From Candidatus Zixiibacteriota bacterium (GTDB taxonomy: Bacteria; Zixibacteria; MSB-5A5; GN15; FEB-12): a stretch of DNA of 64,000 bases. Shown piece after piece: positions 21,435-58,832 of the stretch. Where the stretch lies: positions 173,925 to 237,924 of the forward strand of contig JACZXB010000002.1 in NCBI GenBank assembly GCA_022571845.1, given 5' to 3'. Position 1 is the stretch's first letter. Each line of letters begins with the position of its first letter. Position numbers and translations under genes: made by a program. The notes beneath the pieces are model-generated. The model was not told the DNA's origin. It saw only the letters and a program-made list of their open reading frames with translations, and did not search any database.

Positions 21435-22718
21435 ATGCAGATAGCAAATGTAGACCCGGATTCACCGCTGTTTGGATATGTCCGTCCCGGTTATAAGGTC
21501 GTATCTATAAACGGGGAAGCGGTTTTAGACGAAATAGATTTCCGGTACAAGACTACCGATGAGCAAATAGACATTCTGTTTGCGGATAAAGACGGGAAAG
21601 AGCTAAGCTTTCAGTTCGAGGAATACCTGCCGGGTGATCTGGGGCTGACATTTGTAAGCGACAAAATCCGCACCTGTAAAAACGACTGCATTTTCTGCTT
21701 CATCGTCCAGCAGCCGCAGGGGATGAGGCGCTCTCTATATGTCAAAGACGAGGATTATCGTCTTTCTTTTACTCACGGCAATTTCATAACTCTGTCAAAT
21801 ACTAACGATGAAGATATCGACCGGATAATTGAACAGCGACTGTCGCCGCTGTATGTCTCGGTGCACGCCACCGATGACAAACTTCGGCGCTGTATGCTAA
21901 AGAATGAAAAACTGGCGCCGATTGTGCCCTCGCTGAAAAAACTGGGTGATAACGGCATTATCGTGCATACTCAAGTAGTTCTCTGTCCGGGTATCAACGA
22001 CGGTGACCAGTTAGACAGAACTATCAACGAATTAGTGGAGCTGTATCCGAGCGTGGAGACATTAGCGGTGGTACCGGTAGGCTTGACAAAATACCGCGAC
22101 AACTTGCCCAACTTGCGCACCTATAATAAAGATGAAGCGCGCCAGATTATTAAGCTGGTTGAACAAATGCAGAAGAAACTCTTAAAAAAGATTGGCACCA
22201 GGTTTGTCTGGCCGGCCGATGAGTTTTTCGTTGTCGCCGAAAAGAAATTCCCTGCTTTATCTTACTACGAAGAAATGAATCAGTTTGAAAACGGTATTGG
22301 CATGGTTCGTGAATTTATGACGATGTTTAACCGCCGCCGTTCTCGCTTAAAAAAGATAAAATCCGGAAAGCGGGCTTTGTTTCTGACAGGAGCCTCGGCC
22401 TTTCCGTTTTTCAATAAAGAGATTCTGCCGTATATAACCGGTGAACTTGGGCTAAGAGTTGAAATAGATCTGGTCAAAAACCGTTTCTGGGGGGAGGGTG
22501 TTACAATCTCCGGCCTTTTGACCGGTCAGGATTTGCTCCGTCACGCCAGAAAAAATATCGAACGCTTTGACTGTCTGGTACTGCCGCCCAATTGTCTCAA
22601 TATGGACAATCTCTTCCTGGACAATCTTTCGTTAGAACAATTTCAATCGGTTCTGCAACAACCAGTTTATATTGGTCAGTATGATCTGGCCGCCACCTTA
22701 AAAGATTTATATCAATGA
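21435..22718 (+). CDS. PDZ / radical-SAM-like DUF512 Fe-S protein
   Basis: CKNDCIFCF, SLYVKDEDYRLSF, VPVGLT, QFENGIG, GLLTGQD; usual neighbour of der. Confidence 0.88.
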   Translation: MQIANVDPDSPLFGYVRPGYKVVSINGEAVLDEIDFRYKTTDEQIDILFADKDGKELSFQFEEYLPGDLGLTFVSDKIRTCKNDCIFCFIVQQPQGMRRSLYVKDEDYRLSFTHGNFITLSNTNDEDIDRIIEQRLSPLYVSVHATDDKLRRCMLKNEKLAPIVPSLKKLGDNGIIVHTQVVLCPGINDGDQLDRTINELVELYPSVETLAVVPVGLTKYRDNLPNLRTYNKDEARQIIKLVEQMQKKLLKKIGTRFVWPADEFFVVAEKKFPALSYYEEMNQFENGIGMVREFMTMFNRRRSRLKKIKSGKRALFLTGASAFPFFNKEILPYITGELGLRVEIDLVKNRFWGEGVTISGLLTGQDLLRHARKNIERFDCLVLPPNCLNMDNLFLDNLSLEQFQSVLQQPVYIGQYDLAATLKDLYQ

Positions 22719-24028
22719 GTCTGCCGATAGTTGCGATTATTGGGCGACCCAATGTCGGCAAGTCATCTCTTTTTAATCGGTTCCTTAAAAGAAAAATAGC
22801 GGTGGTTGATAAAACTCCCGGTGTTACCAGAGACAGAAACTATGCGGTTTGCGACTGGTCAGGAATTCATTTCAGGCTGGTTGATACGGGAGGGCTTGAT
22901 CTTGGCGAGACTGACGAATTCAAAAAACATATACACGACCAGGCCACATTTGCTATAAACGAAGCCGATCTGATATTGTTTTTGGTAGACGCCCGCACCG
23001 GTCCGACTGATCTTGATGTCACCATCGCCAAAAGTCTGAAAAAAACTATATCAAAAACGATTCTGGTAGCCAACAAGTGTGACGATGAAAAGCTGACAGA
23101 AGAACTTTACGAATTTATGGGTTTGGGCATCGGCGAACCTCAGCCGGTCTCGGCGACTCTGGGTCTTTATGTGGGGGACCTGCTGGACAAGCTGGTCGAT
23201 AAGCTTCCAAAAGAGAAAATCGAAAAAGATGATAATGAGGATGTAACCAGAATTGCTATAGTCGGACGCCCCAATGTTGGCAAGTCATCATTTATAAACA
23301 AGCTTATAGGCGAGGAAAGGCTGATTGTTACGCCCATAGCGGGTACGACCAGAGATGCGGTTGATACTCCCTTTGAATTTGAAGGTAAGAGCTATGTTCT
23401 GGTTGATACTGCTGGTCTGCGCCGACAATATAAAGTTCACGATGACATCGAATTCTACACCAGTATCAGAACCACCCGGGCAATTGAAAACTGCCACGTG
23501 GCTATTGTGCTAATTGATGCTGTAGAAGGCGTGACAACTCAGGATTTGAGAATTCTCGACCAGGTCCTCACTAACCGGCGCTCGGTTGTTATTGCCGTCA
23601 ATAAGTGGGATTTGATAGAAAAAGATTCCAAAACTGCTGATGAATTTACGGTAAAAATTAAAGACGTTCTGGCTAATCATGCCTATGCTCCTTTAATTTA
23701 TATTTCAGCTTTGACAGGACAGAGGCTGGAAAAAGTAATTAAGATCGCAACCGAAGTATACCGGAACTCATGCCAGAGAGTGGCGACTTCACAACTAAAC
23801 GAATTCTTAGAAGATGTAGTCAGGCGAAAACATCCGCCTGCCAGACACGGCAAGTACATAAAGCTCCTTTACGCTACCCAGACCGAATCTCAGCCGCCAA
23901 CTTTTGTCTTTTTCTCAAATCTGCCAAAGTTGATAGACAAATCTTACATCAGCTATATTTCTAATCAGCTGCGCCAGAAATTCAGTTTTGAAGGTGTACC
24001 CATACGCCTCAAGTTTAGAAAAAAATAA
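22715..24028 (+). CDS. der: ribosome biogenesis GTPase Der
   Basis: Two GRPNVGKSS P-loops, PGVTRD/GTTRD, NKCD/NKWD. Confidence 0.97.
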   Translation: MSLPIVAIIGRPNVGKSSLFNRFLKRKIAVVDKTPGVTRDRNYAVCDWSGIHFRLVDTGGLDLGETDEFKKHIHDQATFAINEADLILFLVDARTGPTDLDVTIAKSLKKTISKTILVANKCDDEKLTEELYEFMGLGIGEPQPVSATLGLYVGDLLDKLVDKLPKEKIEKDDNEDVTRIAIVGRPNVGKSSFINKLIGEERLIVTPIAGTTRDAVDTPFEFEGKSYVLVDTAGLRRQYKVHDDIEFYTSIRTTRAIENCHVAIVLIDAVEGVTTQDLRILDQVLTNRRSVVIAVNKWDLIEKDSKTADEFTVKIKDVLANHAYAPLIYISALTGQRLEKVIKIATEVYRNSCQRVATSQLNEFLEDVVRRKHPPARHGKYIKLLYATQTESQPPTFVFFSNLPKLIDKSYISYISNQLRQKFSFEGVPIRLKFRKK

Positions 24029-24055: not shown

Positions 24056-24082
24056 TAACAATTCCCAGTATCAAACCGATAA
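24056..24082 (+). promoter_or_regulatory. sigma28-like promoter upstream of the partner-switching genes
   Basis: TAAC(24056-59)-15bp-ACCGATAA(24075-82). Confidence 0.45.
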
Positions 24083-24093
24083 TCAGGACAGTT

Positions 24094-25386
24094 ATGCCTG
24101 TAACAGTTACAAGTCTCAGTCAGATAGAAAGTCTCGAAAAAAAGCTGGAATCCCAAAAAGCCGAACTTCGTGACCTGGCCACCATGGGCACAGTTATCAC
24201 TTCGATTCATGACATCGATGCAATCCTGTCAGTTGTAATGGATATGGCTGTTGGGCTGGTCAGCGGCGAAGTCGGAATGATTATGCTGGAGGAAAACTCC
24301 GAGCTGGTTGCCCGCATTTCATGGGGAATAGACGAAAAATTTGTGAGAGCGCTGGTTTATAAGGACGACGTTGATCTGGCCACTTACTGTTTCAAGAACC
24401 AAAAAACAGCCATCTTAAATGAGCTCTGTTTGATAAGCGACCGCCGACTGCGGGTTGAATCGGTCATTTGCGTGCCCATCAAAACCTCATCGAAATGTTA
24501 CGGGGTTAATGTCATCATTAACAAACAGGAAGGCGGTAGTTTTGAGCAGGAAGATATCGAAATTCTGCAAATGCTTATGAATTTTGTGGCCGTGTCTATT
24601 GACAATTCTACCTTGCTGCAAGAGAAGCTTGAAAAGCAAAAGATGGAGCAGGAGATTGCCATTGCTCGCCAGGTACAAAAAACTATTTTGCCGGAAAACA
24701 TTGATGACATAAAGGGAGTAGAAATAGGAGCCGAATATATACCGGCCAAAGATGTCGGCGGTGATTTCTATGATGTCATCAGGGCGAATAATGACAAGTT
24801 TGTAGTTGTTCTGGGAGATGTATCGAACAAGGGCATACCGGCAGCTTTAGTTATGTCCGCGGCCAGCGGCATAATTAAATCTGTTTTGGAATTTGAGCCA
24901 GATGTTGAACTGTCTTTGTTGGCTGAAAAGGTGAATAAGATCTTGTCCAAGGGAATTATTAAAGACCGGGAGACTTTTGTGACCCTGTTTTTTGCCAGAT
25001 TTGACTTAAAGGCAAAAGAGCTCAGCTATTGTAATGCCGGTCATTTGCCCGGGCTGTTTGCAACTTCTGCCGGCAAAGAAATCATAAAGCTGTCAATAGG
25101 CGGAACTCTCATCGGTCAATTTCCAGAGACGAAATACACTATCGGTAAAGTGCCGCTGGCAGCCGGCAGCAGACTTTTCCTTTTCACAGATGGCCTGACC
25201 GAGTCAGTCGATGCAAATATGAATCTGTTCGGAATAGACAGAACTGAAAAATTATTCAAGAAGGAATTAAAATTAAAGCCACAGCAATTCTGCCGGAAAG
25301 TCAAAAAGACAATAGATGAGTATTCTATTGGCTCAAAGATAGAGAGTACGGATGATTTTACAGTGCTTCAAATAAAGGTAAACTAA
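24094..25386 (+). CDS. GAF + PP2C (SpoIIE/RsbU-like) phosphatase
   Basis: N-terminal GAF (CVPI...NK...F...D), AR.VQ..ILP, VGGDFYD, GDVSNKG, NAGH, FTDGLTE, DDFT. Confidence 0.92.
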   Translation: MPVTVTSLSQIESLEKKLESQKAELRDLATMGTVITSIHDIDAILSVVMDMAVGLVSGEVGMIMLEENSELVARISWGIDEKFVRALVYKDDVDLATYCFKNQKTAILNELCLISDRRLRVESVICVPIKTSSKCYGVNVIINKQEGGSFEQEDIEILQMLMNFVAVSIDNSTLLQEKLEKQKMEQEIAIARQVQKTILPENIDDIKGVEIGAEYIPAKDVGGDFYDVIRANNDKFVVVLGDVSNKGIPAALVMSAASGIIKSVLEFEPDVELSLLAEKVNKILSKGIIKDRETFVTLFFARFDLKAKELSYCNAGHLPGLFATSAGKEIIKLSIGGTLIGQFPETKYTIGKVPLAAGSRLFLFTDGLTESVDANMNLFGIDRTEKLFKKELKLKPQQFCRKVKKTIDEYSIGSKIESTDDFTVLQIKVN

Positions 25387-25808
25387 TGTCTTTTAACAGG
25401 ACTTTCAAATATCTCTCAAATCCAGAGTCAGGCGAGCAGATGCTTGATGACTTAAACGACCTCTTAGATATCAGGGAGATTTCTCCTCAGCAGAAATACT
25501 CGTTTCTGTTGGCCATCTCAGAGGCATTTACTAACGCCATAATACACGGGAACCAGTGTAATCCGGAAAAAACAGTAAAATTAACGGTTATAGTAAATGA
25601 AAATGAGTTGTCTGCCGATATTGAAGACGAAGGTCAAGGTGGTCTGAAAAACATAGATAATAGGCAGCCATCGCAGCCGTTTGATGAAGGCGGCCGGGGC
25701 ATCGACCTGATTGAGCATTATGCTACAGCAGTGTGTTACTCAGAATCGCCGGCAGGAGGCTTGAAAGTAAGCATAAAGATACTTCGCCAAAAAGGAGTGC
25801 TAAAATAA
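25386..25808 (+). CDS. anti-sigma factor Ser kinase (RsbW-like HATPase)
   Basis: SEAFTNAIIHGN, DEGQG, GGRGI. Confidence 0.88.
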   Translation: MSFNRTFKYLSNPESGEQMLDDLNDLLDIREISPQQKYSFLLAISEAFTNAIIHGNQCNPEKTVKLTVIVNENELSADIEDEGQGGLKNIDNRQPSQPFDEGGRGIDLIEHYATAVCYSESPAGGLKVSIKILRQKGVLK

Positions 25809-25829
25809 GAACCGGGGCCGGAGGGAAAT

Positions 25830-26186
25830 ATGAATCTAAAGGTGAGAGAAGAAAGCGGTGCCAGAATAATTGCTCTGAACGGACGACTTGAGTTGACAAC
25901 CGGAAAAGAACTCAAGGAAAAAATAAAAGTGTTTTGCGATTCGGGAACAACCAGAATCCATCTCAATATGGAACAGGTAGAATTCATAAACAGCTCCGGG
26001 CTGGGAGCCTTAATCTCTGCCATGAAAGAAGTACGTCTTGTAAAGGGGAGGCTGACTTTGTCTAACCTGGCACCGTATGTCAGGGAGATTTTTGACATTA
26101 CTCAATTAGCACACATTTTTGAAATTCATGAAACAGAACAAGCCGCATTTGCCTCTTCGGAGTCTGTAACGGTCAGCCAAAGATAG
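25830..26186 (+). CDS. anti-anti-sigma factor (STAS, RsbV-like)
   Basis: LNGRL, FINSSGLG (phospho-Ser motif), IFDIT.L...F.I. Confidence 0.9.
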   Translation: MNLKVREESGARIIALNGRLELTTGKELKEKIKVFCDSGTTRIHLNMEQVEFINSSGLGALISAMKEVRLVKGRLTLSNLAPYVREIFDITQLAHIFEIHETEQAAFASSESVTVSQR

Positions 26187-26195
26187 CCAGCAGCT

Positions 26196-26600
26196 GTGAC
26201 AATAAATCAAACGGAGCAGCCATCAATCCTTGTAGTAGATGACGAATTATTGATTCGTGACCTGTTGTATGATTTTTTTAAGCAGCAGGGATGGACTATA
26301 GCCGTTGCGGAAAACGGTGAAAAAGCTCTCGAGATATTGAGAGCAAGAAAAATTGACCTGGTCTTGACTGACATAAAAATGCCCCAGATAGATGGTCTTA
26401 CTTTGACCTCGCAGGTCCGGGCCAAGTATCCAGATATGCCGGTTGTTCTTATGACCGGTTATCCATCGGTTGAGACCGCCGTTGAAGGGATCAGGGCCAA
26501 AGTTTCTGATTACATAATCAAGCCATTCAATATCAACAAGCTGTTTAAAACGTTAAAATCGCAGCTTGACGACAGCAATCCTTCATCAGACGAAGTATAA
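26196..26600 (+). CDS. single-domain response regulator
   Basis: VVDDE, TDIKMP, MTG, KPF. Confidence 0.9.
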   Translation: MTINQTEQPSILVVDDELLIRDLLYDFFKQQGWTIAVAENGEKALEILRARKIDLVLTDIKMPQIDGLTLTSQVRAKYPDMPVVLMTGYPSVETAVEGIRAKVSDYIIKPFNINKLFKTLKSQLDDSNPSSDEV

Positions 26601-26693
26601 AGCCAGTCTAAAGCAGTTAGTATCTCCAAAAAAAGTTTTAGTTGAAAAGCTTTGCCTGCCGGTCTACAATCAGCAGACTGGTAGCAAAGTTAT

Positions 26694-28049
26694 ATGGAAG
26701 AGAGGACAACCACAGCAATCAAGAAGATGACCGGGCAAACTGGTTCAACAGATGTCTCGAAATTTGCAGAATCCTATGCCTCTTTTAACCGCATAGTAAA
26801 TAGCCTTCAGCGCCAGTATATCGAACTTAAAGAAGAATTTACTGCTCAGAATTTAGAAGTGGCCAGAACCAACCTTAAGTTAGTCAGACTTACCAAGAGC
26901 AATTTGGCAGCCACAGAATTTTTGAATGGAGTGCTGAACTCTATCCCTATAGGAGTTATAACTGTAAACCAAAATTCTATGATCACACACTGTAATCCGA
27001 CTGCTATGGCGATTTTTGGCATAGCAGAGAAAAGCGTAATCGGCCGAAAATATTCAGAAGTAATTAAAACCGGGCACGGCCAATCAGCCGTTTCAGCGGT
27101 CAAGACATTTACGACAGGAGAAGAGTTTTCGGCTACTGAGCAAAAAATAACGTTGGCTGATAACAGAGAGCTGAATTTGTCAATCTCTACGGCAAAACTT
27201 GAAGATGAAAGCGGCAAATTTGTAGGCGCCGTAGAGGTAATTCAGGATATGACAAAGGTGCGGCGGTTAGAGCAGGAAATAGCCAGACTGAACACTCTGG
27301 CAGCGCTGGGGGAGATGGCAGCGGTCATTGCTCATGAAGTTCGCAATCCTTTGTCGGGCATAAGCGGTTTTGCATCGCTATTGGAAAGAGACTTAGAAGA
27401 TGACGACCCCAAAATGAAGCTGGTTCTTAAAATCAAGCGCGGAGCAGAAATTCTTAACGAGACAGTTACCAAGCTTCTAAACTATACTCGATTCAGCGAA
27501 TTAAACAGAACAGACAGTTCTTATCTGAAATATCTTGAATCAATCATCGAGGATTTCAACACACAATTAGCGGAAGCAGGCAAGCAGACCAAAGTTGATT
27601 TCAACTTTCCTGAATATCTGGCCAGAAGAAACGTAATTATTTCGCTGGACCAAATACTGTTTCGTCAGGCGCTCTACAATATTTTGACAAACGCGGTGGA
27701 AGCAATGGACGATAGCGGCAAATTAACAGTTGAAATAATGACTTATGAAGCAAACGACACTCCGGAGTTATTTAAAAACAAGCTGCCGCTGGAATTTGGA
27801 GAGCAGCTTTCGGTAACAACGATTAGTGACAACGGACCCGGAATAGAAGCTGAGCCTCGTGAAAAGATATTTGCGCCCTTTTTTACAACAAAAAAAGACG
27901 GTAGCGGCCTGGGCTTGGCTGTCGCCTGGAAATTGGTAAAGGCACATGGAGGAGAAATTCTTCTTGCAGAAAAGCAGCAGGAAGGAACAACTTTCCACAT
28001 TTTACTGCCGGCTAAAATTGACGCCGCACAATCGGAGAATCAACAATGA
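26694..28049 (+). CDS. cytoplasmic PAS histidine kinase (FleS/FlrB/FlgS-like)
   Basis: N-terminal coiled coil (ASFNRIVNSLQRQY), PAS, AHEVRNPL, NAVEAM, DNGPG, PFFTTK, GLGL; no TM. Confidence 0.88.
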   Translation: MEERTTTAIKKMTGQTGSTDVSKFAESYASFNRIVNSLQRQYIELKEEFTAQNLEVARTNLKLVRLTKSNLAATEFLNGVLNSIPIGVITVNQNSMITHCNPTAMAIFGIAEKSVIGRKYSEVIKTGHGQSAVSAVKTFTTGEEFSATEQKITLADNRELNLSISTAKLEDESGKFVGAVEVIQDMTKVRRLEQEIARLNTLAALGEMAAVIAHEVRNPLSGISGFASLLERDLEDDDPKMKLVLKIKRGAEILNETVTKLLNYTRFSELNRTDSSYLKYLESIIEDFNTQLAEAGKQTKVDFNFPEYLARRNVIISLDQILFRQALYNILTNAVEAMDDSGKLTVEIMTYEANDTPELFKNKLPLEFGEQLSVTTISDNGPGIEAEPREKIFAPFFTTKKDGSGLGLAVAWKLVKAHGGEILLAEKQQEGTTFHILLPAKIDAAQSENQQ

Positions 28050-29401
28050 AGTTTATTGTTTTAGTGGTCGACGATGACAAACTTGTCAATGATTTTGTAG
28101 TAGAGTCATTGAACAGGGCAGGATATAGCTGTCAGACTGTAATGTCGGGGGAAGAGGCTATAATCGAAATAGAAGAGGCGCCGTTTGATGTCGTCCTGCT
28201 TGATTTGAAAATGAAAGGCATGGACGGCATTGAGACGTTAAAGCAGATAAAAAAACTCAGACCAGACACACATGTGGTAATGATGACGGCCTTCGGAACT
28301 GTGGAAACGGCAGTCAGGGCAATGAAATTTGGCGCCGCAGATTTTCTGCTCAAGCCGGTTTCACCAGAAACTCTGGAATTCAAATTGTCTCAACTCACCG
28401 AACTGATACAGTTAAAAGCAGACAACGAACAGATGCGGCTGGAACTTTTCAGCAAATTCCATAACATGATTGGCAAATCAAAAGTAATGCAGAATGTATT
28501 TGATCTGATTAATTCAATAGCCAACGCCCGCTCGACTGTGATGATAACAGGACCATCGGGAACCGGTAAGGAACTGGTTGCGCGCTCAATCCACTTACTT
28601 TCACAGAGAAGAAATAAGCCGTTTATTAAGCTAAACTGTGCTGCCCTACCTGAGAATCTGGTTGAAGCAGAGCTCTTTGGCTATGAAAAAGGCGCCTTTA
28701 CAGATGCCAAGAAAACTTCACGCGGCAGATTTGAACTGGCCGATGGAGGCAGCCTGCTGCTTGATGAAATCTCTGAAATGCCTTTGAATCTGCAGTCCAA
28801 GCTTTTGAGAGTAATTCAGGAAAGAGAATTTGAACGGGTCGGTTCAAGCGAGACAATATCAGTTGATGTCCGCCTGATTGCGACTTCCAATAGAAACTTA
28901 AAAGAATGCATCGCTCAGGGCATATTCCGGGAGGATCTCTATTTTCGCCTGAACGTCATTCCTGTAGTTTTACCTCCGCTTAGTGATCGGCTTGAAGATA
29001 TTCCACTTTTGGTTAAACATTTTTTTGAAAAATACAATGCAGAAAACAACAAGACTGTCAAATCAATAGATCAAGACGCTATGAGACTCCTGGTAAACTA
29101 TCACTGGCCTGGAAATATCCGGGAACTTGAAAATCTGATAGAAAGAGCGATCGTCACCTCTACCCGGGAAAATCTGACAGAGGATGATTTCCCTTCGGAA
29201 CTCTCTTTAGGTGTTCTTGCAGATGAAATGCCCAGTATTAAAATTCCTATGACTCTGGAAGAAGGCAACAAATTTTTGATTTTAAGAACTCTGGAAAAAT
29301 TTGGTGGTAATAAGACCAAAGCTGCTGAGGCTTTGGGCTGTACCGCCAGAACTATCAGGAATAAGCTGGCCGAATACCGGGTAGGCCAGAATATCAATTA
29401 G
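28046..29401 (+). CDS. sigma54-dependent response regulator (FleR/FlrC/FlgR-like)
   Basis: REC, GPSGTGKE, GAFTDA, LLLDEI, WPGNIREL, Fis-type HTH. Confidence 0.92.
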   Translation: MKFIVLVVDDDKLVNDFVVESLNRAGYSCQTVMSGEEAIIEIEEAPFDVVLLDLKMKGMDGIETLKQIKKLRPDTHVVMMTAFGTVETAVRAMKFGAADFLLKPVSPETLEFKLSQLTELIQLKADNEQMRLELFSKFHNMIGKSKVMQNVFDLINSIANARSTVMITGPSGTGKELVARSIHLLSQRRNKPFIKLNCAALPENLVEAELFGYEKGAFTDAKKTSRGRFELADGGSLLLDEISEMPLNLQSKLLRVIQEREFERVGSSETISVDVRLIATSNRNLKECIAQGIFREDLYFRLNVIPVVLPPLSDRLEDIPLLVKHFFEKYNAENNKTVKSIDQDAMRLLVNYHWPGNIRELENLIERAIVTSTRENLTEDDFPSELSLGVLADEMPSIKIPMTLEEGNKFLILRTLEKFGGNKTKAAEALGCTARTIRNKLAEYRVGQNIN

Positions 29402-29438: not shown

Positions 29439-29465
29439 TTGAAAGAGCCGGCTTTCTGCCGATAT
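29439..29465 (+). promoter_or_regulatory. sigma28-like promoter of motAB
   Basis: GCCGATAT (29458-65) with TTGA/TGAA 14-15 bp upstream. Confidence 0.55.
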
Positions 29466-29528: not shown

Positions 29529-30287
29529 ATGGATTTTGCAACAATTCTGGGCCTTATTATAGCCGTGGGGGCAATCCTGGGGGCGTTTACGCTTGAAGGT
29601 GGAAATATAAATGCCATTTTCATGGCTGGCCCGATTCTGATTGTCGTAGGCGGGACATTCGGCGCTACCATGATTACTACTTCCATGAAAACAGTTTTCA
29701 GTCTGCCCGCGTATCTGCGACTTGCCTTCACATCAATGTCACTGTCTACGCATTTAACCATTGAGCTAATTGTAAAGCTGGCTGAAAAGGCCAGACGCGA
29801 GGGTATTTTGGGCCTTGAATCGGACATGATGAAAGTAAAAGATAGATTCTTGAAAAAAGCAATGCAGTTGGTTATTGACGGCACCGAAGTATCCACTCTT
29901 AAAGAAATTCTCGACAGTGAAATGACATATCTTGAAGAGCGTCACAAAAAGGGGATAGACTTTTTCCAGAAAGCCGGCGGTTTCGCACCGACTATGGGGA
30001 TTTTGGGCACTGTTTTAGGTCTGGTGCATACTCTTGGTAACACAGATGATGCCGGCAAGATGGCGGCCGCAATTGCGGCAGCTTTCATTGCAACTCTCTG
30101 GGGTGTCGCACTGGCAAATGTCTTTTTGCTGCCAATCGCTGATAAATTGAGATTAAGGCATGAAGAAGAAATGTCACACTGGGAGCTTATCGCCGAAGGG
30201 GTTGTGGCTATTCAATCAGGAGATAACCCGCGTAATATTAAAACAAGACTGCACTGTTTTATTCCTCCTCACACCCGCGATGAATAG
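29529..30287 (+). CDS. motA: flagellar stator MotA
   Basis: ARREGILGLE, APTMGILGTVLGL, AFIATLWG. Confidence 0.95.
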   Translation: MDFATILGLIIAVGAILGAFTLEGGNINAIFMAGPILIVVGGTFGATMITTSMKTVFSLPAYLRLAFTSMSLSTHLTIELIVKLAEKARREGILGLESDMMKVKDRFLKKAMQLVIDGTEVSTLKEILDSEMTYLEERHKKGIDFFQKAGGFAPTMGILGTVLGLVHTLGNTDDAGKMAAAIAAAFIATLWGVALANVFLLPIADKLRLRHEEEMSHWELIAEGVVAIQSGDNPRNIKTRLHCFIPPHTRDE

Positions 30288-30292
30288 ATAAA

Positions 30293-31033
30293 ATGCCGCG
30301 TAAGAAAAGAAAAACATTTCATCACGATAACACCGATCGATGGCTGCTGACCTACGCTGATCTGATAACACTGCTGCTGGCGTTTTTTATCGTGATGTAT
30401 TCTATGTCGCGCCTTGATGCCAAAAAGTTTGGCGAAGTCACACAAGAGCTGCAGGCTGTACTAAAAGGCGGCAACAACGCTATCCTGAGATTTAAGGACA
30501 AACAATCATCAAAAGGGCAGGGGGTTCTCAAGCTGGGAAAATTAAAAATGCTGCAGCAGCTGATCGATAAAAAGTTTGAACAAATTGATAAACAGAAAAA
30601 AATTAAAACTGAAATAACCGAGCGAGGTCTGGTTGTTCATATTATGGAGACTGCTTTATTTAATGAAGGCTCGGAAAGGCTGCGCAATGCCGCTCTGGAT
30701 GTTCTTGATCTGATATATGAAGAGATAAAAAATACTAAAAATCATATCCGTATTGAAGGGCATACCGATGACCGGCCAATTAAGAATATTAACTTTACTT
30801 CAAACTGGGAGCTTTCGGTAGCCAGGGCTACTTCGGTTGTACAATACTTTGTCGAAAGTCACAACTTTCCTGCCGAGAGGATATCTGCTCTCGGTTACGG
30901 CGAATTTCGACCAATGGTGCCGAATACATCAATAGAAAATCGCGCCCAGAACCGCCGGGTAGATGTTGTCATTCTTACAGATCAACTTTCTATAAAAGAG
31001 CCTTCATCGTCACTTTATGATTTTAATGGCTAG
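30293..31033 (+). CDS. motB: flagellar stator MotB
   Basis: WLLTYADLITLLLAFFIVMY, EGHTD, NWELS.ARA, NRRV. Confidence 0.95.
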   Translation: MPRKKRKTFHHDNTDRWLLTYADLITLLLAFFIVMYSMSRLDAKKFGEVTQELQAVLKGGNNAILRFKDKQSSKGQGVLKLGKLKMLQQLIDKKFEQIDKQKKIKTEITERGLVVHIMETALFNEGSERLRNAALDVLDLIYEEIKNTKNHIRIEGHTDDRPIKNINFTSNWELSVARATSVVQYFVESHNFPAERISALGYGEFRPMVPNTSIENRAQNRRVDVVILTDQLSIKEPSSSLYDFNG

Positions 31034-31119: not shown

Positions 31120-31260
31120 ATGGATGACAACACGTTAATGCGGCAACTCTGTTTTGGCACAATCGTTGCAATACTTCGAACTGAGAAACGATGGAGGACA
31201 ACACGCTAATGCAACTACTCTGTATTGCACAATCGTCGCAATACATCGAACTGATAAACT
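31120..31260 (+). repeat. ~70-bp imperfect tandem duplication
   Basis: Copy 1 at 31120-31190, copy 2 at 31191-31260 (ATGGAnGACAACACG...CACAATCGTnGCAATACnTCGAACTGAnAAAC). Confidence 0.9.
31155..31170 (+). promoter_or_regulatory. sigma54 promoter of the flgB operon
   Basis: TGGCAC-AATCG-TTGCA, an exact -24/-12 consensus. Confidence 0.85.
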
Positions 31261-31276
31261 TTGGATTCTATAAATT

Positions 31277-31690
31277 ATGATTAATAAGTTACAAAATTTT
31301 CTGTTTATAAAGAGCGGTGTTCCCAGGCTGGAGAACTATCTGAATCTGACCGCACTGCGCCATAAGCTAAAAGCAGGCAATGTGGCCAATGTCGCCACTC
31401 CGGGTTACAAGAGCCGCGATATTAGTTTCGAAGAAGAATTCAAAAAGCTAAACGGTTCAACTCAAGGACTCAAAGGAGAGTTGACCAACCCGGCTCATAT
31501 AGCATTGGGGCAGCACAAAAGCCGTCCTCCCAAAGTAGAAGAGACAGAGGTCGTCAAGGATGAGTTTAATTCGGTAGATATTGATATAGAGATTTCAGAA
31601 ATGGCCCAAAACGAACTTCTCTTTACGATTGGAGCCAGGCTCCTGCAAAGTAAATTTGATGGCATCAGAAAGGCTATAACCAGCAGGTAG
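31277..31690 (+). CDS. flgB: flagellar basal-body rod protein FlgB
   Basis: NVANVATPGYK..D..F; NSVDID.E. Confidence 0.9.
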   Translation: MINKLQNFLFIKSGVPRLENYLNLTALRHKLKAGNVANVATPGYKSRDISFEEEFKKLNGSTQGLKGELTNPAHIALGQHKSRPPKVEETEVVKDEFNSVDIDIEISEMAQNELLFTIGARLLQSKFDGIRKAITSR

Positions 31691-32210: not shown

Positions 32211-32540
32211 ATGAAGATTAGCCCAATAGGAATTAGCGCTTATCAACACGTTCAAAACATAAATAACTTAGATGGCGCCAACAAGCAGCAGGAGGTGACG
32301 GATAAGGTCAGTTCAAAACTGACAATCAGCCCTCAGCAGGAGAACGCAATTTCTGCAGTATCAATCAAGCCGTCTACGGTTATTGCCGAAAACGTCCTGA
32401 ACGGTTCTGAAAAGGCAGCCCTGGACCAGCTGATAAAAGTCATAAGTGAAAACAGCGTCTCGAAACTCGGCTATTCCAGAAATGATAGAAATATAGAATC
32501 GCCCGAAGCAGTCGGGAAGATTATTGACGTTAAGGTATAA
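32211..32540 (+). CDS. hypothetical flagellar-operon protein
   Basis: 109-aa ORF with GAGGA RBS between flgC and fliE; ends GKIIDVKV. Confidence 0.7.
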   Translation: MKISPIGISAYQHVQNINNLDGANKQQEVTDKVSSKLTISPQQENAISAVSIKPSTVIAENVLNGSEKAALDQLIKVISENSVSKLGYSRNDRNIESPEAVGKIIDVKV

Positions 32541-37997: not shown

Positions 37998-38771
37998 CTA
38001 ATACGGGCAATCCGGCGGCGGCTGACCCCCGCGGAAAATGAAATCAACCAGATAAACAAGATCGACGACATTGACATTGCCGTCCGGGTCCTGATCGAAA
38101 TCGCCCTCTTCGGGACAAAACAATTCCGGTCCGCCGCGAAAGATTCTGTCAACCAAATAGGTTAAGTCAAGAATATTGGCGTCAACTCCATCATAGTTGA
38201 CGTCGCCTACCTGGTCAATACAGCAAAGTTCCCTGTTAATATACAGGTAACCAAATTCAAATTGGGGTGCAAACTGGTTTGCCAAAGAATCTGAAAAAGA
38301 AGTACTCCAATGTATCAGTAGATTCTGAACGTTTACAGAATCAATTTTTACCAGGATCGAATCCAGGGAGTCGGGATAGGAGAAGTGTAAATGTCCCAAT
38401 AGTCCGCTTCCTGAAGGTATCAAGGGTTCACTCAGAGGAAAACCCCATATAGATATGGCAGAGTCCAAATAGTGTCGGGTCATACCTTTGGTAGGAATAT
38501 AGTCAACCCGGCTTCCGACGAACGAAAAAGAATCCAGAAATATCAAGGCGGGGTCATAGTCATATTTTAAGGTGATCTCGAAACCTGCCAGAGGTTGATC
38601 ATTTACAAAGCTGATAGCAACTGCCCACTCCGACAGGGGAGACTGAGTAGAATCAATATAGACAGTATCAGGTAAATTGGGGTCCTGGGCAAAGGCAGAG
38701 CTTTTTGCCGAAAATGCCGCCAAAAGCAGCAATGCAATTATAATCGACAGTATTTTTATTCTAAAACGCAT
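37998..38771 (-). CDS. secreted cohesin-like + dockerin domain protein
   Basis: Signal peptide; DTV.ID...ND..LAG..I.L.Y...SFVGSR...GSGLL..L.F cohesin-like domain; CC..GDVNYDG..DLTYLVD.IFRGG duplicated dockerin repeat. Confidence 0.78.
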   Translation of the reverse strand: MRFRIKILSIIIALLLLAAFSAKSSAFAQDPNLPDTVYIDSTQSPLSEWAVAISFVNDQPLAGFEITLKYDYDPALIFLDSFSFVGSRVDYIPTKGMTRHYLDSAISIWGFPLSEPLIPSGSGLLGHLHFSYPDSLDSILVKIDSVNVQNLLIHWSTSFSDSLANQFAPQFEFGYLYINRELCCIDQVGDVNYDGVDANILDLTYLVDRIFRGGPELFCPEEGDFDQDPDGNVNVVDLVYLVDFIFRGGQPPPDCPY

Positions 38772-39056
38772 AGATAGACATTGCCTTTCATTCAAGATTT
38801 CAGCAAAACTTGTGCTCGTTACAATCTCAAAATTAACAAGTCTGGGTCGAAATTTAATTGCCTTTCAAAACGGTGTAAGTAGTTGTAATCACGGCAGATT
38901 GCTTTCCGCTGAAAATATAATAGTTATCCACAAAAACCGCAATAGAAATCTGCAGATTCCTGGGTATGCAACCGTTTGAACATTATAGGGAAGAGCTGGC
39001 AATATTGACCAAAAATTGAGGATTTCCAGCAGCTTTTTAGAGAATTTTGGAAACCC

Positions 39057-43208: not shown

Positions 43209-43762
43209 TGAATGAAATGGCCATAAATAGTCTCACTGCAAATATTCAAGCCAAAACTATAGGCGGTAATGAAGGCAGTAAACCGGCGACTGTCGAGGGA
43301 GAAAAAACGCGACTAAGAAAAGCTGCCAAAGATTTTGAAGCATTCTTTATGTATCAGATGCTTAAGACCATGAGAGAAACTGTTCCGGAAAACCCGCTGG
43401 TCAAAGATTCGCCGTTTTCGAATGGTCATGGCAAAGATATCTTTACACAGATTTTTGATATGGAAATCTCAAAAAAGATGGTTGGCAACGGTAAAGAGTC
43501 GATATCAGAAGTTCTTTACAGGTCCCTCGAAAAAGTTATAGAAGCCCAATTCAAAGGCAATAATAGAGAAGAACAGATTGAACTCAAACCGCTGAAGACT
43601 GAAGATACCAGTTTTAAACCGCTCTTACAGGAAAAACTGGAGTTAAAAGAGAACCAGCTGTTTCAGATTAAGAGAAAAGATGCCGGAAATTTGTTCCCTG
43701 TGGTGAGCAAATTTCAGACAGAGAATGCTCAAAATTTGAGCAAAAACCCTAAGGCACGGTAA
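43208..43762 (+). CDS. flgJ: FlgJ-like rod-binding protein without a muramidase domain
   Basis: LRKAAKDFEAFFMYQMLKTMRETV...FD.E. Confidence 0.8.
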   Translation: MNEMAINSLTANIQAKTIGGNEGSKPATVEGEKTRLRKAAKDFEAFFMYQMLKTMRETVPENPLVKDSPFSNGHGKDIFTQIFDMEISKKMVGNGKESISEVLYRSLEKVIEAQFKGNNREEQIELKPLKTEDTSFKPLLQEKLELKENQLFQIKRKDAGNLFPVVSKFQTENAQNLSKNPKAR

Positions 43763-43776
43763 GTTAGTACCGATAA
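43750..43776 (+). promoter_or_regulatory. sigma28-like promoter of flgN-flgK
   Basis: TAAG(43750-53)-15bp-ACCGATAA(43769-76). Confidence 0.6.
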
Positions 43777-43785
43777 GGAAAACAC

Positions 43786-44295
43786 GTGACAACCATGAGT
43801 TTGTCAGAGATGGTCGAAAAGCTAATCGAAACGCTTAGTTCTGAGGCTGTCGTATTTGAAGAATTTCTAAAACTGCTTTCACAGCAACAGGAGATGCTGG
43901 TGAATAATGACATTGACGGTCTTAATAGAGTAACCGGGCTTCAGCGCGAGAAAGTTGCACAGAGTCAGCTTCTAAATCAGCGCCGGGATAAACTGGTTGC
44001 TGAGATTAAATCTGCTAATACAATCGAAGGTGACTTAAATGTCTCAATGCTGCTTGAGCATGTCGACGAGCATCAGGGTGGACGTCTTATTCAGTTGAGA
44101 GAAGTCATCCAGAGCTTTACTCAAAAGATTGGCGAAGTTCGAAATCAAAACGCTATGCTTTTGAACAGGTCGAAAGAATACATTTTGCGGACAATGGAAC
44201 TGCTTTCTAAAATTAACAATCCGGATTCAGGATATGCTGCCAACGGAGAGACTGTAGAAAACAGCTCCTTTGTGGCAGTTAACAGGAGAGCTTAG
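43786..44295 (+). CDS. flgN: flagellar chaperone FlgN
   Basis: Helical protein, N..N..LL, precedes flgK. Confidence 0.8.
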   Translation: MTTMSLSEMVEKLIETLSSEAVVFEEFLKLLSQQQEMLVNNDIDGLNRVTGLQREKVAQSQLLNQRRDKLVAEIKSANTIEGDLNVSMLLEHVDEHQGGRLIQLREVIQSFTQKIGEVRNQNAMLLNRSKEYILRTMELLSKINNPDSGYAANGETVENSSFVAVNRRA

Positions 44296-45733: not shown

Positions 45734-46069
45734 TTGCTGATACTAACAAGGAAGTTAGGCGAGTCGATAGCGATCGGCGACAACATAAAAATATGCGTAC
45801 TTGGAATCCACGGACGACAGGTACGTATCGGCATAGATGCTCCGCCGGATGTTATAGTACATCGCGAAGAGATTTACCTGAAAGTTCAGGAAGAGAATCG
45901 TAAGGCATCGAAGTCGATAAAGGATGATTTGATGAGTGTAGTCAAGTTGTTGAAAGGGAAATTTAAGGGAAAAGCATCTTTAGATAAAAAACCGTTTATT
46001 AGTTACAAAGAGAACAGGCCCAAAAAGAAACGAAACAATTTTAATCCTAAACCGAGAAATAACAGGTAG
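45734..46069 (+). CDS. csrA: carbon storage regulator CsrA with long basic tail
   Basis: [29 protein letters not shown]. Confidence 0.93.
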
Positions 46070-48593: not shown

Positions 48594-50225
48594 TTGGAAA
48601 AGCATGAAAAAGCGCCAGGAAGGCAGCTTGAGACAGACAACAAGTCCCACGAGAAATTCATAAAAAACCTCAATAATTTACTTGAGAATAATCAACTGGC
48701 TGAAGCCTTACCGATTTTACATACCCTGGCCGATCAAAGCCCCGATGATCCTCAGCTTCGGGTAACTGCCGGATTGGTTGCCTTGAGTCTGGACAAACAG
48801 GATGAGGCCCGCCGCTCGTTTGAACTGGCGCTAAAAGCAGACCCTAAGAATATAGACGCTCTCTATAATAGTGCACTTCTGGCGATGTCCCGCGGAATGA
48901 CGGACAGGGCAATTGAACTTTTTGAAAAGATTGCCTCTGTCAATCCGGAAGACGCCGATGTTTACAACGACCTGGCCGTAATCTGGATAAACAAAAGCAA
49001 CATAGACAAAGTAAAAGAATGTTTCTCCAGGGCGATCGAGCTTAATCCAAATTACACTCAGGCTAGAAAAAATGCAATGGAGTTCGCTACTGAGCATAAG
49101 CAGCAAGAATGGGGCAGGAAATTGCTTGATCAAAATAGAGCCTTACCCGGACTTTCAGAAGAAACTGTAATGGATATAGAATCATGGGAAAACAAAATCA
49201 CTCCTGAATATTCTGACAATCCCACCGTAACAATTAGATCTGGCAAAGCGGTTTTAAGCGACCGCATTACCGCTAAGAAAATTGCAATATTTGCTAATCA
49301 CAAAGCGTTTGTAATAGATATCATCAAACGCCTTGAAGATGACCATAACCAGATTACGGAGTACTCGGCAGACTCCGGACAGAGCATGAGCGAACTGCTT
49401 AGCTCTGTAGACTTAGCCTGGTTTGAATGGTGCGATAATCTTGTTATAGAAGCTTCCAGACTTTCCAAAACCTGTCCGATAATCTGCCGCTTGCACAGCT
49501 ATGAAGCTTTCACGGAGTTGCCGTCGCAGGTTAACTGGAAAAATGTCGACCATTTAATATTTGTAAATAAATCGGTCATGGAACTGGTTGGCGAAACTAT
49601 TGCCGGCATAGTACCCAAGACCGTAATACACAATGGAGTGGACCTTGACCGCTTTACGATTCCGGAGAACAAGACCTATGGCAAAAAAATAGCCTCGGTA
49701 GGTTACATCAATTACAAGAAGAACCCAGCTCTGCTTCTTTATTGTTTCAAGAAGATTTATGAATACGACCCGGAATTTACATTTCATATTGCAGGTCTGC
49801 ATCAGGACCCGCGCATAAAGTTATACTTTGATAATTTTCTGGAAGAAAGTCCCCTGCCTATAGAATTCTGTGGCTGGGTAAAAGATATGCCGGAATGGTA
49901 CAAAGATAAGGATTATGTAATCTCTACTTCTCTGTTTGAATCGTTTCATTATTCTATCGCCGAAGGCATGGCCAGCGGCCTCATGCCGCTTATTCATAAC
50001 TGGTATGGCGCCAAACATTTATACCCCGAAGAGCACTTGTTTACCGACCCGGACGCCTGCCTTGAACTCGTCAAGGAGTTCGAAATAAACGATAGCTCTA
50101 AACAGGCTCAGATAAATCGTAAGTTCATAAGTAACAGATACAATCTTGATGACAAGTTCAGCCAGATATCTCGCTTAATGAACAAAGTCGTCTGTGCAGA
50201 CAGCAGAAAAATTGTCAGTGTTTAG
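48594..50225 (+). CDS. TPR + GT4 glycosyltransferase
   Basis: N-terminal TPRs; IHNGVD, KKNP, ESFHYSIAEGMASG (EX7E). Confidence 0.85.
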   Translation: MEKHEKAPGRQLETDNKSHEKFIKNLNNLLENNQLAEALPILHTLADQSPDDPQLRVTAGLVALSLDKQDEARRSFELALKADPKNIDALYNSALLAMSRGMTDRAIELFEKIASVNPEDADVYNDLAVIWINKSNIDKVKECFSRAIELNPNYTQARKNAMEFATEHKQQEWGRKLLDQNRALPGLSEETVMDIESWENKITPEYSDNPTVTIRSGKAVLSDRITAKKIAIFANHKAFVIDIIKRLEDDHNQITEYSADSGQSMSELLSSVDLAWFEWCDNLVIEASRLSKTCPIICRLHSYEAFTELPSQVNWKNVDHLIFVNKSVMELVGETIAGIVPKTVIHNGVDLDRFTIPENKTYGKKIASVGYINYKKNPALLLYCFKKIYEYDPEFTFHIAGLHQDPRIKLYFDNFLEESPLPIEFCGWVKDMPEWYKDKDYVISTSLFESFHYSIAEGMASGLMPLIHNWYGAKHLYPEEHLFTDPDACLELVKEFEINDSSKQAQINRKFISNRYNLDDKFSQISRLMNKVVCADSRKIVSV

Positions 50226-50233
50226 GATGAGCA

Positions 50234-52786: not shown

Positions 52787-52828
52787 CAAGTTTTCTACAA
52801 ATTATTCTCAGTTTTTTAGCTAAATTTA

Positions 52829-52855
52829 TTAAGATACTGGCGCTTTTGCCGATTA
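52829..52855 (+). promoter_or_regulatory. sigma28 promoter of flagellin
   Basis: TTAA(52829-32)-15bp-GCCGATTA(52848-55). Confidence 0.7.
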
Positions 52856-52899
52856 AATTCTTTGTAAAAGCAAAAAGTCTCTCAAGTTAGACTTCACAC

Positions 52900-53050
52900 A
52901 ATAGGAGGGGCAAACAGCTCACAGGGGTTTAAAGGAGTTTTAACTCTGACAGGATAGTCATCAACATTGGAAGTGACATATACTAGCAAGCAACTAAACA
53001 ACATTGAACGGACGGGATAAGGTAATCCCGCAAATCTCCAAGGAGGAGAA
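52900..53050 (+). promoter_or_regulatory. flagellin leader with GGA-loop hairpins (CsrA sites)
   Basis: TGAC-AGGATA-GTCA (52947-60); TCTCC-AAGGA-GGAGA over the SD (53035-49); further GGA motifs. Confidence 0.6.
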
Positions 53051-53052
53051 GA

Positions 53053-58643: not shown

Positions 58644-58832
58644 ATGCTTATGGGAAGCCAACAGCAGCATGAAAATCCGAAGAAAACGAGTAGAAGGAAT
58701 AAGTTAACTCAAAGCAAAGGTTCGGATAGAAGTGAAAAGATTGAGATGCTCAAAAGGCGGGTTCAGTCAGGCTTTTACAAAAGTGATGATGTCATTGAGA
58801 AAGTTGTCAAGAGGCTGACCGGGGAGATATAG
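58644..58832 (+). CDS. short FlgM-like anti-sigma28 protein
   Basis: RSEKIEMLKRRVQSGFY resembles the FlgM C-terminal R.EKV..LK..I..G.Y; AGGAGG RBS. Confidence 0.6.
   Translation: MLMGSQQQHENPKKTSRRNKLTQSKGSDRSEKIEMLKRRVQSGFYKSDDVIEKVVKRLTGEI

Follow-up and report, generated by a model that had tools for sequence, protein, structure and literature searches.

A 64,000-nucleotide stretch of the genome of a Candidatus Zixiibacteriota bacterium (GenBank assembly GCA_022571845.1, contig JACZXB010000002.1), hereafter the window, carries six co-oriented regulatory genes directly upstream of the flagellar genes motAB and flgB. The first four encode a GAF-PP2C serine phosphatase, an RsbW/SpoIIAB-type serine kinase, a STAS protein and a stand-alone receiver (REC), and they are followed by a histidine kinase and an NtrC-type sigma54 activator. 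The first four genes probably constitute a late-class, sigma28-driven flagellar partner switch with the state of the STAS protein as its output. The link of the module to flagella, which the original prediction had proposed, is borne out by conserved synteny and by family-level co-occurrence with FliG, and a promoter motif of the flagellar sigma type is conserved in position ahead of the phosphatase gene.

In the proposed mechanism, phosphatase, kinase, STAS protein and REC would be transcribed as one four-gene late-class operon from a sigma28 (FliA)-type promoter, which hugs the ATG so closely that the mRNA would have a leader of no or only a few bases. The kinase would phosphorylate the invariant serine of the STAS protein (within FINSSGLG), and the GAF-PP2C phosphatase would strip this phosphate upon binding of a ligand sensed by GAF, with the stand-alone REC as a probable phosphorelay input. 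The phosphorylation state of the STAS protein would then serve as the output, tuning late flagellar and chemotaxis behaviour. The continuation of the operon in relatives (HEAT-REC-cheR-Y-Y-Z-A-B) would be typical late-class content.

Gene content and protein motifs

The window corresponds to G000:C14:173925-237924, where G, L, C and f numbers are the labels of this analysis for genomes, loci, contigs of G000 and families; G000 is 2.75 Mb long and 98.8% complete. A Pfam scan over 66 open reading frames (ORFs) of the window confirmed all domains assigned to the six genes in the original prediction, as well as their common orientation and their position:

24056-24082, + strand: candidate sigma28-type promoter (TAAC at 24056-24059, 15 nucleotides, ACCGATAA at 24075-24082, then 11 nucleotides to the ATG at 24094)
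24094-25386, + strand: GAF-PP2C (SpoIIE/RsbU-type) serine phosphatase, 430 amino acids
25386-25808, + strand: RsbW/SpoIIAB-type serine kinase, possible anti-sigma factor, 140 amino acids (HATPase_c_2)
25830-26186, + strand: STAS protein of anti-sigma-antagonist type, 118 amino acids (Pfam, TIGR00377)
26196-26600, + strand: stand-alone REC, 134 amino acids, with a GTG start 9 nucleotides past the STAS gene
26694-28049, + strand: cytoplasmic PAS-HisKA-HATPase_c histidine kinase, 451 amino acids
28046-29401, + strand: NtrC-type sigma54 activator (REC-Sigma54_activat-HTH_8), 451 amino acids

The phosphatase matches Pfam SpoIIE with 132.9 bits (1.8e-38) and GAF with 38.2 bits (2.5e-09), and its motifs GGD224, GD242VSNKG, NAGH, TD366G and DD420/421 (PPM metal-binding aspartates) are invariant across 17 orthologues. 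The start of the kinase gene overlaps the stop codon of the phosphatase gene. The kinase (HATPase_c_2, 61.7 bits, 9.3e-17) has intact N, G1 and G2 boxes, with the N-box SEAFTNAxxHGN (E46, N50, H54), D81xG83 and G103-R-G105 invariant in 19 orthologues; among solved chains, its profile is closest to SpoIIAB (1til/1l0o, E 7e-13) and RsbW (6m36) and also matches Rv1364c (3ke6_A, E 6e-05). The STAS protein (Pfam STAS, 69.7 bits, 2.1e-19) exceeds the NCBIfam cut-off for TIGR00377 (77.4 against 53.45 bits), has TM1442, SpoIIAA and RsbV as the closest solved chains, and keeps the motif F-I-N-S-S-G-L-G, including N54, S55, S56 and G57, invariant in 21 orthologues. The equivalog cut-offs of spIIAB (46.2 vs. 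135 bits) and spore_II_AA (59.6 vs. 114.75 bits) are not reached by the kinase and the STAS protein. The REC (Response_reg, 1.7e-31) is a canonical single-domain receiver with intact D15, D16, D59, T87 and K109, and the 15-residue stretch VDDELLIRDLLYDFF following its acidic pair is invariant in 21 orthologues. In alignments of orthologues, the mean column identity is 74% for FliA, 69% for STAS, 62% for REC and 43% for the kinase.

Thus, PPM phosphatase aspartates, GHKL kinase boxes and a single-domain STAS protein with a conserved phosphorylatable serine are all present and, as judged from sequence, the set of phosphatase, kinase and STAS protein is complete and lacks a sigma gene. The latter point had been part of the original prediction and holds more widely: a sigma70-family profile search of the genome found no sigma factor gene in the window or on contig C14. 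Its 12 matches, on C1, C2, C4, C5, C8, C11 and C16, comprise one RpoD/RpoS-like protein of 284 amino acids, one FliA (C11, above the TIGR02479 cut-off) and ten extracytoplasmic function (ECF) sigma factors, FliA being the genome's sole member of the SigB/F/FliA group; rpoN is present on C17. The only RpoD-like sigma found by PF04542 (G000:C4:82886-83740, 284 amino acids) matches just the C-terminal part of RpoD models, and no longer primary sigma was seen by PF04542 despite the completeness of the assembly.

The sigma28-type promoter motif ahead of the phosphatase gene

The consensus of sigma28 (FliA) promoters consists of TAAA-N15-GCCGATAA-like elements. The original prediction had pointed to TAAC-N15-ACCGATAA ahead of the first gene and had likened it to the flgN promoter; the motif is indeed there, and the flgN site reads TAAG-N15-ACCGATAA (43750-43776). 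For comparison, a sigma28 matrix was built from 26 flagellin promoters of relatives, which follow the pattern T(A/T)AAG-N14-GCCGAT(T/G)(A/T) at 188-231 nucleotides ahead of the ATG in 26 of 30 genomes. Within the window, this matrix gives 24.7 for the flagellin site, 11.2 for flgN, 8.9 for motA and 2.7 for the phosphatase site. The last value ranks 132nd of 39,948 positions in 20 kb, with about 0.33 sites expected per 100 nucleotides, and 28th among the + strand intergenic candidates of the window, so that the site taken alone is not beyond chance.

It is the position of the motif that is conserved. An octamer [GAT][CT]CGA[TA]NN ends 5-13 nucleotides before the phosphatase start in 52 of 65 related loci, as compared with 664 of 13,000 random positions (5.1%), and most of the 13 loci without it carry one-mismatch forms in the same spot. 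The -35 element TCAA/TTAA/TAAA stands 15 nucleotides 5′ of the octamer, while other spacer positions are not conserved. Among relatives, the orthologous sites reach scores as high as 22.8, ranking first in 20 kb. A sigma28-type promoter of the phosphatase gene is considered likely because of this conservation across orthologues, though the window's own score is weak; the original prediction is supported by the comparison with relatives and not by the site itself, and transcription by FliA is what we infer from it.

It had been noted as a caveat that the -10 element lies only 11 nucleotides from the ATG. The short distance turned out to be a conserved trait: in relatives it is mostly 7-9 nucleotides (7 in 18 loci, 8 in 16, 9 in 10), and in 51 of the 52 octamer-bearing loci the gene starts with ATG. 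Transcription from sigma28 promoters begins a few bases past the -10 element. With this spacing, the 5′ end of the transcript should coincide with the ATG or precede it only slightly, which leaves no space for a ribosome-binding site, and a leaderless or near-leaderless late-class phosphatase mRNA is predicted. Family f3 and some distant families differ, the motif being 20-40 nucleotides upstream and a leader being present. Transcript starts are unreadable in the four sequencing runs that contain parts of the stretch, which are assembled contigs from whole-genome-amplified “RNA?” libraries, mostly 90-95% alike.

At flgN (43750-43795), the -10 element ACCGATAA lies 9 nucleotides ahead of a GTG and 18 nucleotides ahead of an in-frame ATG, and this gene, like the phosphatase gene, may carry a very short leader. 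When the whole genome was scanned with the matrix, the flagellin site came out on top (24.7), the other top sites were located before or within unrelated ORFs (crude ORF calling), and no regulon could be defined. Contig C13 has a second, short flagellin-like gene (C13:5086-5526) and another REC-sigma54 activator gene (C13:19032-20450), the latter preceded by a site with a sigma28-matrix score of 17.0.

Synteny and co-occurrence with flagella

Conservation of the gene order was proposed as a check on the original prediction, and the outcome is uniform. Among 41 genomes of the order (G000 counted), an orthologue of the phosphatase with E ≤1e-100 is found in 38, is split across two contigs in one more, and is missing from two incomplete genomes, G006 (85% complete) and G037 (68%), which also lack FliG, a gene linked to it. 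In all 20 loci fetched around the phosphatase orthologue, the order is radical SAM, Der, phosphatase, kinase, STAS, REC, histidine kinase, activator, MotA, MotB, FlgB, FlgC, FliE and FliF, with further genes allowed on either side of REC. A STAS-profile scan with one genome per species extended the survey to 219 relatives; all 80 loci kept are colinear as far as the contigs reach, and the module is also preserved in 5 of 5 loci of the more distant families f5 and f16-f19. Phosphatase and kinase share one reading frame in 6 of 95 loci, and kinase and STAS do so in 13 of 98, REC being always separate; these fusions provide Rosetta-stone support for the three proteins acting together.

Architecture was counted in 100 loci, 9 of which are duplicates. 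Of 99 loci, 65 carry a gene for a 635-residue HEAT-repeat protein in the interval from STAS to REC, and 50 of 84 have a che block (second REC, cheR, two cheY, cheZ-like, cheA, cheB) that separates REC from the histidine kinase. Thirty loci have neither of these, 50 have both, and four have HEAT alone. The window's genus represents the short form: the only HEAT match has an E-value of 1.9e-6 and is not an orthologue, and CheA is represented just by a 38% identical paralogue on another contig. The original prediction had regarded the partner switch as fused to the sigma54 two-component system; this adjacency is real in the window's genus but is not general, and it appears, from the comparison of loci, to be a derived short form.

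In the phylum survey of 285 genomes, best STAS E-values were bimodal, and an orthologue was called at E below 1e-25. None of the 42 genomes of families f6, f7, f8, f13, f14 and f15 has such an orthologue; FliG is found there once, weakly (1/42), and paralogous partner-switch sets persist. Nearly every genome of f1-f5, f9, f10, f12, f16, f18 and f19 carries both STAS and FliG. Mismatches in single genomes are mostly due to fragmented assemblies and, given the linkage of the genes, only comparison at the level of families is informative. Co-occurrence within the order was discarded as a test, all 41 genomes bearing a flagellar marker (FliG in 37, flagellin in 40). The absence of the module from non-flagellated relatives, a check set by the original prediction, is thus borne out for the STAS orthologue in these six families but only in part for the phylum: non-flagellated genomes of family f20 have a divergent STAS-REC-REC-histidine kinase-activator cassette without phosphatase or RsbW-type kinase (see below).

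The histidine kinase-activator pair and its predicted promoter

The N-terminus of the histidine kinase is hydrophilic and without a membrane-like stretch, and its best NCBIfam match is AtoS (253 bits, under the cut-off of 646). The activator (Sigma54_activat, 1.6e-70) is matched best by AtoC (461.6, cut-off 714), followed by FlbD (345.8, cut-off 750) and FlgR (328.7, cut-off 750), none of which exceeds its cut-off. The flagellar role of the pair is something that we infer from gene context only: an NtrC-type activator and a kinase stand beside flagellar genes, a sigma54 site precedes the gene at the flgB position, and rpoN is present, as expected of a flagellar sigma54 two-component system.

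The pair is preceded by a promoter-like box of its own:

26634-26670, + strand: promoter box before the histidine kinase gene (AGTTTTAGTTGA at 26634-26645, -35 TTGAAA at 26642-26647, 17 nucleotides, -10 TACAAT at 26665-26670), matching the sigma70 consensus at 10 of 12 positions

The underlying motif AAAGTTTT(T/A)GTTGAA is conserved in 71 of 75 distinct loci, as opposed to 0.7% of random positions, and lies 28-94 nucleotides ahead of the kinase start; its TTGAAx is followed at 16-19 nucleotides by TAnnnT, both parts being present in 45 of the 75. Short and long forms of the locus both have the box, which occurs as a single copy in the window and at six further places in the genome without an evident link. 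Its conservation in the spacer between REC and histidine kinase suggests that the pair has its own sigma70-like promoter. In view of this box, the sigma28 feedback onto early regulators postulated in the original prediction is doubtful, although read-through from upstream may occur. The portion of the box (loci L043-L142) that lies 5′ of the -35 element may represent an UP element or a site bound by a regulator.

Possible targets and alternative explanations

Among the candidate outputs, the FlgM/FliA axis comes first, although tentatively: the STAS protein may, in the manner of HsbA, bind the FlgM-like protein, or the kinase may hold FliA and so close a loop on its own promoter. The FlgM-like candidate is encoded near the end of the flagellar genes:

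58644-58832, + strand: small FlgM-like ORF, 62 amino acids (Pfam FlgM, E 0.0011, 19.5 bits, below the cut-off of 25)

Several observations weigh against the favoured flagellar switch or its FliA-directed form. The matrix score of the sigma28 site in the window is low, its -10 element beginning with A and its -35 element reading TAAC; the FlgM-like ORF stays under the Pfam threshold; and the kinase is the least conserved member of the module. Two further phosphatase/kinase/STAS sets are encoded on C14 together with additional SpoIIE phosphatases; as the genome has three such sets but lacks a SigB-type sigma, at least two of the sets probably have outputs other than a sigma factor. Finally, the f20 cassette lives on without phosphatase, kinase and flagella, which points to the two-component system over FliA, and in Pseudomonas putida, according to excerpts of a preprint (10.1101/2024.11.25.625174), HsbA leaves FliA-dependent transcription unchanged and acts on a diguanylate cyclase.

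The two other sets on C14 lie at about 50155-53238 (- strand) and 250968-253352 (+ strand). One consists of SpoIIE (750 amino acids), HATPase_c_2 and STAS proteins, the other of a fused HATPase_c_2-SpoIIE protein (686 amino acids) and a STAS protein; besides, the genome has a lone STAS gene on C16 and three more SpoIIE phosphatases.

A somewhat less likely target is the chemotaxis or motor side, which the switch would reach through REC and HEAT. Taken as a full alternative, which we regard as equally uncertain, the module would be a device of chemotaxis or motor control, with the STAS protein, the HEAT protein and a CheY-like REC adjusting chemosensory signalling or the motor and with no effect on transcription. 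The che and mot genes typically depend on sigma28, which fits this view. The module stands at the head of HEAT-REC-REC-cheR-cheY-cheY-cheZ-cheA-cheB in most relatives, with gaps of <70 nucleotides, HEAT and che block come and go together, and REC is of the canonical single-domain type. However, the window genome retains phosphatase, kinase, STAS and REC despite loss of the HEAT orthologue and the che block, and in an NCBIfam comparison REC is best matched by NtrC-type receivers and not by CheY.

The neighbouring sigma54 pair is an unlikely target. Here, at the same low probability, STAS and REC would modulate how phosphate passes between the PAS kinase and the activator, and a metabolic signal would gate the sigma54-dependent rod and hook genes. 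REC belongs with STAS in every locus seen, following it, and STAS, REC, histidine kinase and activator are contiguous in the 30 short-form loci; the sigma54 promoter candidate ahead of the flgB-position gene is in line with this scheme. The idea that STAS modulates a two-component system was suggested by the f20 cassette of non-flagellated Zixibacteria. In the f20 genomes G276, G273 and G271 (99-100% complete), FliG, FlhA and the phosphatase orthologue are missing, but STAS (34-44% identical, motif preserved), two REC proteins, a short histidine kinase and an activator are kept in this order among unrelated genes; G274, which is flagellated and belongs to the same genus, has the cassette too, away from motAB. 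At the same time, about 6 kb of che genes lie between REC and the histidine kinase in those relatives that have the che block, the pair owns a conserved promoter box, and f20 STAS proteins fall outside the well-supported canonical clade (100/100) of the STAS tree without being separated from paralogues, in a bootstrap that had not converged. REC and the receiver of the activator are 34% identical over 100 residues, a figure uninformative on a shared histidine kinase. We know of no precedent for a STAS protein acting on an NtrC-type system, and none was found in the literature searched on partner switching; if true, partner switching would thereby gain a new class of output. A more elaborate form is less probable still: STAS and the adjacent REC would directly modulate the NtrC-type system so that a late, leaderless phosphatase-kinase pair reports to the early sigma54 tier or, as a variant, the kinase would be a FlgM-independent anti-sigma28.

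In G276 (L205:7904-11634; see also L206-L208), the f20 cassette is flanked by an AI-2E transporter gene on one side and, on the other, by genes for a small FlgD_ig-domain protein and for a Na/H exchanger together with haem genes.

The rsbV-rsbW-sigB and spoIIAA-AB-AC operons are autoregulated by the sigma factor that they control. By analogy, the RsbW-type kinase might be a second, signal-responsive anti-sigma28 that holds FliA until unphosphorylated STAS releases it, the operon being autoregulated by its sigma; we consider this rather improbable. SpoIIAB, also in the SpoIIAB-sigmaF entry 1l0o, is a full-length match of the kinase profile, FliA has no other sigma of its group beside it in the genome, and the promoter of the operon is of conserved sigma28 type; moreover, excerpts of PMC6482189 present the fused PP2C-kinase proteins CrsR and HsbR as RpoS anti-sigma factors. 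Against this stand the low conservation of the kinase (43% mean column identity), the FlgM-like ORF already in place, the fusion of the kinase to STAS in some relatives, and the presence of three such kinases for one FliA. A complex prediction with two copies of the kinase and FliA residues 40-293, run without controls, gave a score of 0.01 relative to a mark of 0.32 and is evidence neither way.

That the module is a general stress or housekeeping partner switch merely neighbouring flagellar genes is hardly credible: radical SAM and Der genes abut it in all loci and two other sets share its contig, but its order relative to flagellar genes is kept in 20/20, 80/80 and 5/5 loci, its STAS orthologue is absent from the families without FliG in which paralogous sets persist, and its promoter is conserved and of the flagellar sigma type.

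Other features of the window

The flanking and downstream features are as follows:

22715-24028: Der GTPase (Pfam), which closes the upstream housekeeping genes and is itself preceded by the radical SAM protein
29457-29465, + strand: sigma28-like -10 element TGCCGATAT, 63 nucleotides before motA, fourth among the + strand intergenic candidates listed
29529-31033, + strand: motA (from 29529) and motB (from 30293), with Pfam MotA_ExbB, MotA_N, MotB_plug and OmpA
31155-31170, + strand: sigma54 promoter candidate TGGCACAATCGTTGCA ahead of the flgB-position gene, the only zero-mismatch TGGYAYN5TTGCW of the window
31277-31690, + strand: gene at the flgB position, without a Pfam match
31699, + strand: FlgC, then FliE, FliF and FliG, all on the + strand

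After motAB, the window continues with rod, MS-ring, switch and export genes, flgFGAHIJ, flgN-flgK, csrA, flgL and fliW, followed by two TPR-glycosyltransferase genes, a flagellin gene (721 amino acids), fliD, fliS, a FlgN-like gene, the FlgM-like ORF and a gene for an HDOD protein. CsrA and FliW, which the original prediction had placed in the locus, were recovered by the Pfam scan at 45734 and 48030. The large TPR-glycosyltransferase genes between fliW and the flagellin gene (48594-52786) are of GT1 type (543 amino acids) and GT2 type (850 amino acids), and their position suggests flagellin glycosylation. The flagellin gene has a leader of about 200 nucleotides past its sigma28 promoter (52830-53052; -10 element TGCCGATTA at 52847-52855), and the six relatives displayed share conserved stretches CATTGGAAGTGACAT and AAGGAGGA in this leader, the latter close to the ATG; these may be CsrA sites, in keeping with csrA and fliW in the locus.

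Four ORFs of the flagellar block have no Pfam match (31277-31690, 32211-32540, 37998-38795 on the - strand, and 38677-38979). They include one of 109 amino acids between flgC and fliE, with 27-33% identical copies in several relatives, and the opposite-strand one of 265 amino acids.

Relation to known systems and significance

The closest known counterpart is the HptB-HsbR-HsbA system of Pseudomonas aeruginosa (PA3345-PA3347), likewise a partner switch without its own sigma gene in or beside a flagellar/chemotaxis cluster. In excerpts of the relevant papers, unphosphorylated HsbA is described as binding FlgM (PMC6482189), an output of the system on FlgM/FliA is reported (PMC6482189, PMC8256260), and some STAS-only proteins are said to be encoded in motility or chemotaxis operons with targets not known (PMC8256260). 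Pseudomonas hsbAR-hptB genes lie within flagellar clusters, and P. putida has an operon hsbAR-hptB-fliK...flhB with a weakly FliA-dependent promoter, again according to excerpts (10.1101/2024.11.25.625174).

HsbR (REC-PP2C-GHKL kinase) and HsbA (STAS with a phospho-serine) together have the same domain set as the Zixibacteria module, a likeness of domains and not of directly compared sequences. In the window, however, the domains are on separate chains; the one-polypeptide form is absent there, and only a minority of relatives have fused proteins. The module adds a GAF sensor, has the order phosphatase-kinase-STAS-REC and a predicted leaderless mRNA, and belongs to another phylum (FCB group). 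No Hpt domain was found by Pfam among the 66 ORFs of the window, and in long-form relatives only CheA bears one. The location in a flagellar cluster is shared with hsb, whereas the FliA promoter is read here from a conserved motif.

With RsbU-RsbV-RsbW and SpoIIE-SpoIIAA-SpoIIAB, the module has in common all three protein families with their catalytic motifs and an operon that an alternative sigma from the same group seems to transcribe; it differs in having no sigma gene in the operon or window, in not reaching the equivalog models, and in its flagellar context. Rv1364c, the RsbU-RsbW-RsbV fusion of Mycobacterium tuberculosis, is a profile match of the kinase, and the phosphatase-kinase and kinase-STAS fusions of relatives recall it, but a full three-domain fusion does not occur here, the context is flagellar, and the sensor is GAF, that of Rv1364c being PAS. 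As for the kinase-activator pair, a soluble PAS kinase and an NtrC-type activator beside motAB and rod genes with a sigma54 promoter are shared with FlgS-FlgR (Campylobacter, Helicobacter), FleS-FleR and FlrB-FlrC, while the FlgR and FlbD cut-offs are not reached, AtoC is the best match, and the box AAAGTTTT(T/A)GTTGAA is specific to the Zixibacteria lineage.

The Zixibacteria literature on flagella or anti-sigma factors, judged by title and abstract, does not report the module, and searches on partner switching with FlgM/STAS, RsbW with sigma28/FliA, and chemotaxis with STAS yielded the Hsb papers cited above and no comparable system. The module is a lineage-specific variant of the flagellum-associated partner switching known from Pseudomonas, an extension and not a new principle. 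What is new is the split architecture with a GAF sensor, the fixed place at the head of a che/flagellar block, a promoter that predicts a leaderless mRNA, and the STAS-REC-histidine kinase-activator cassette in non-flagellated relatives.

Partner switches without a sigma factor are common outside Firmicutes, with outputs mostly not known, and the present one has an unusually clear context: the set of candidate partners is small (the FlgM-like protein, FliA, REC, the PAS kinase and the activator), and fused and split forms provide a natural series. If the target is FliA or the sigma54 system, the switch would add a signal-responsive checkpoint to the flagellar hierarchy of sigma54, sigma28 and FliW-CsrA; if it is chemotaxis, it would be one more auxiliary input to the che operon.

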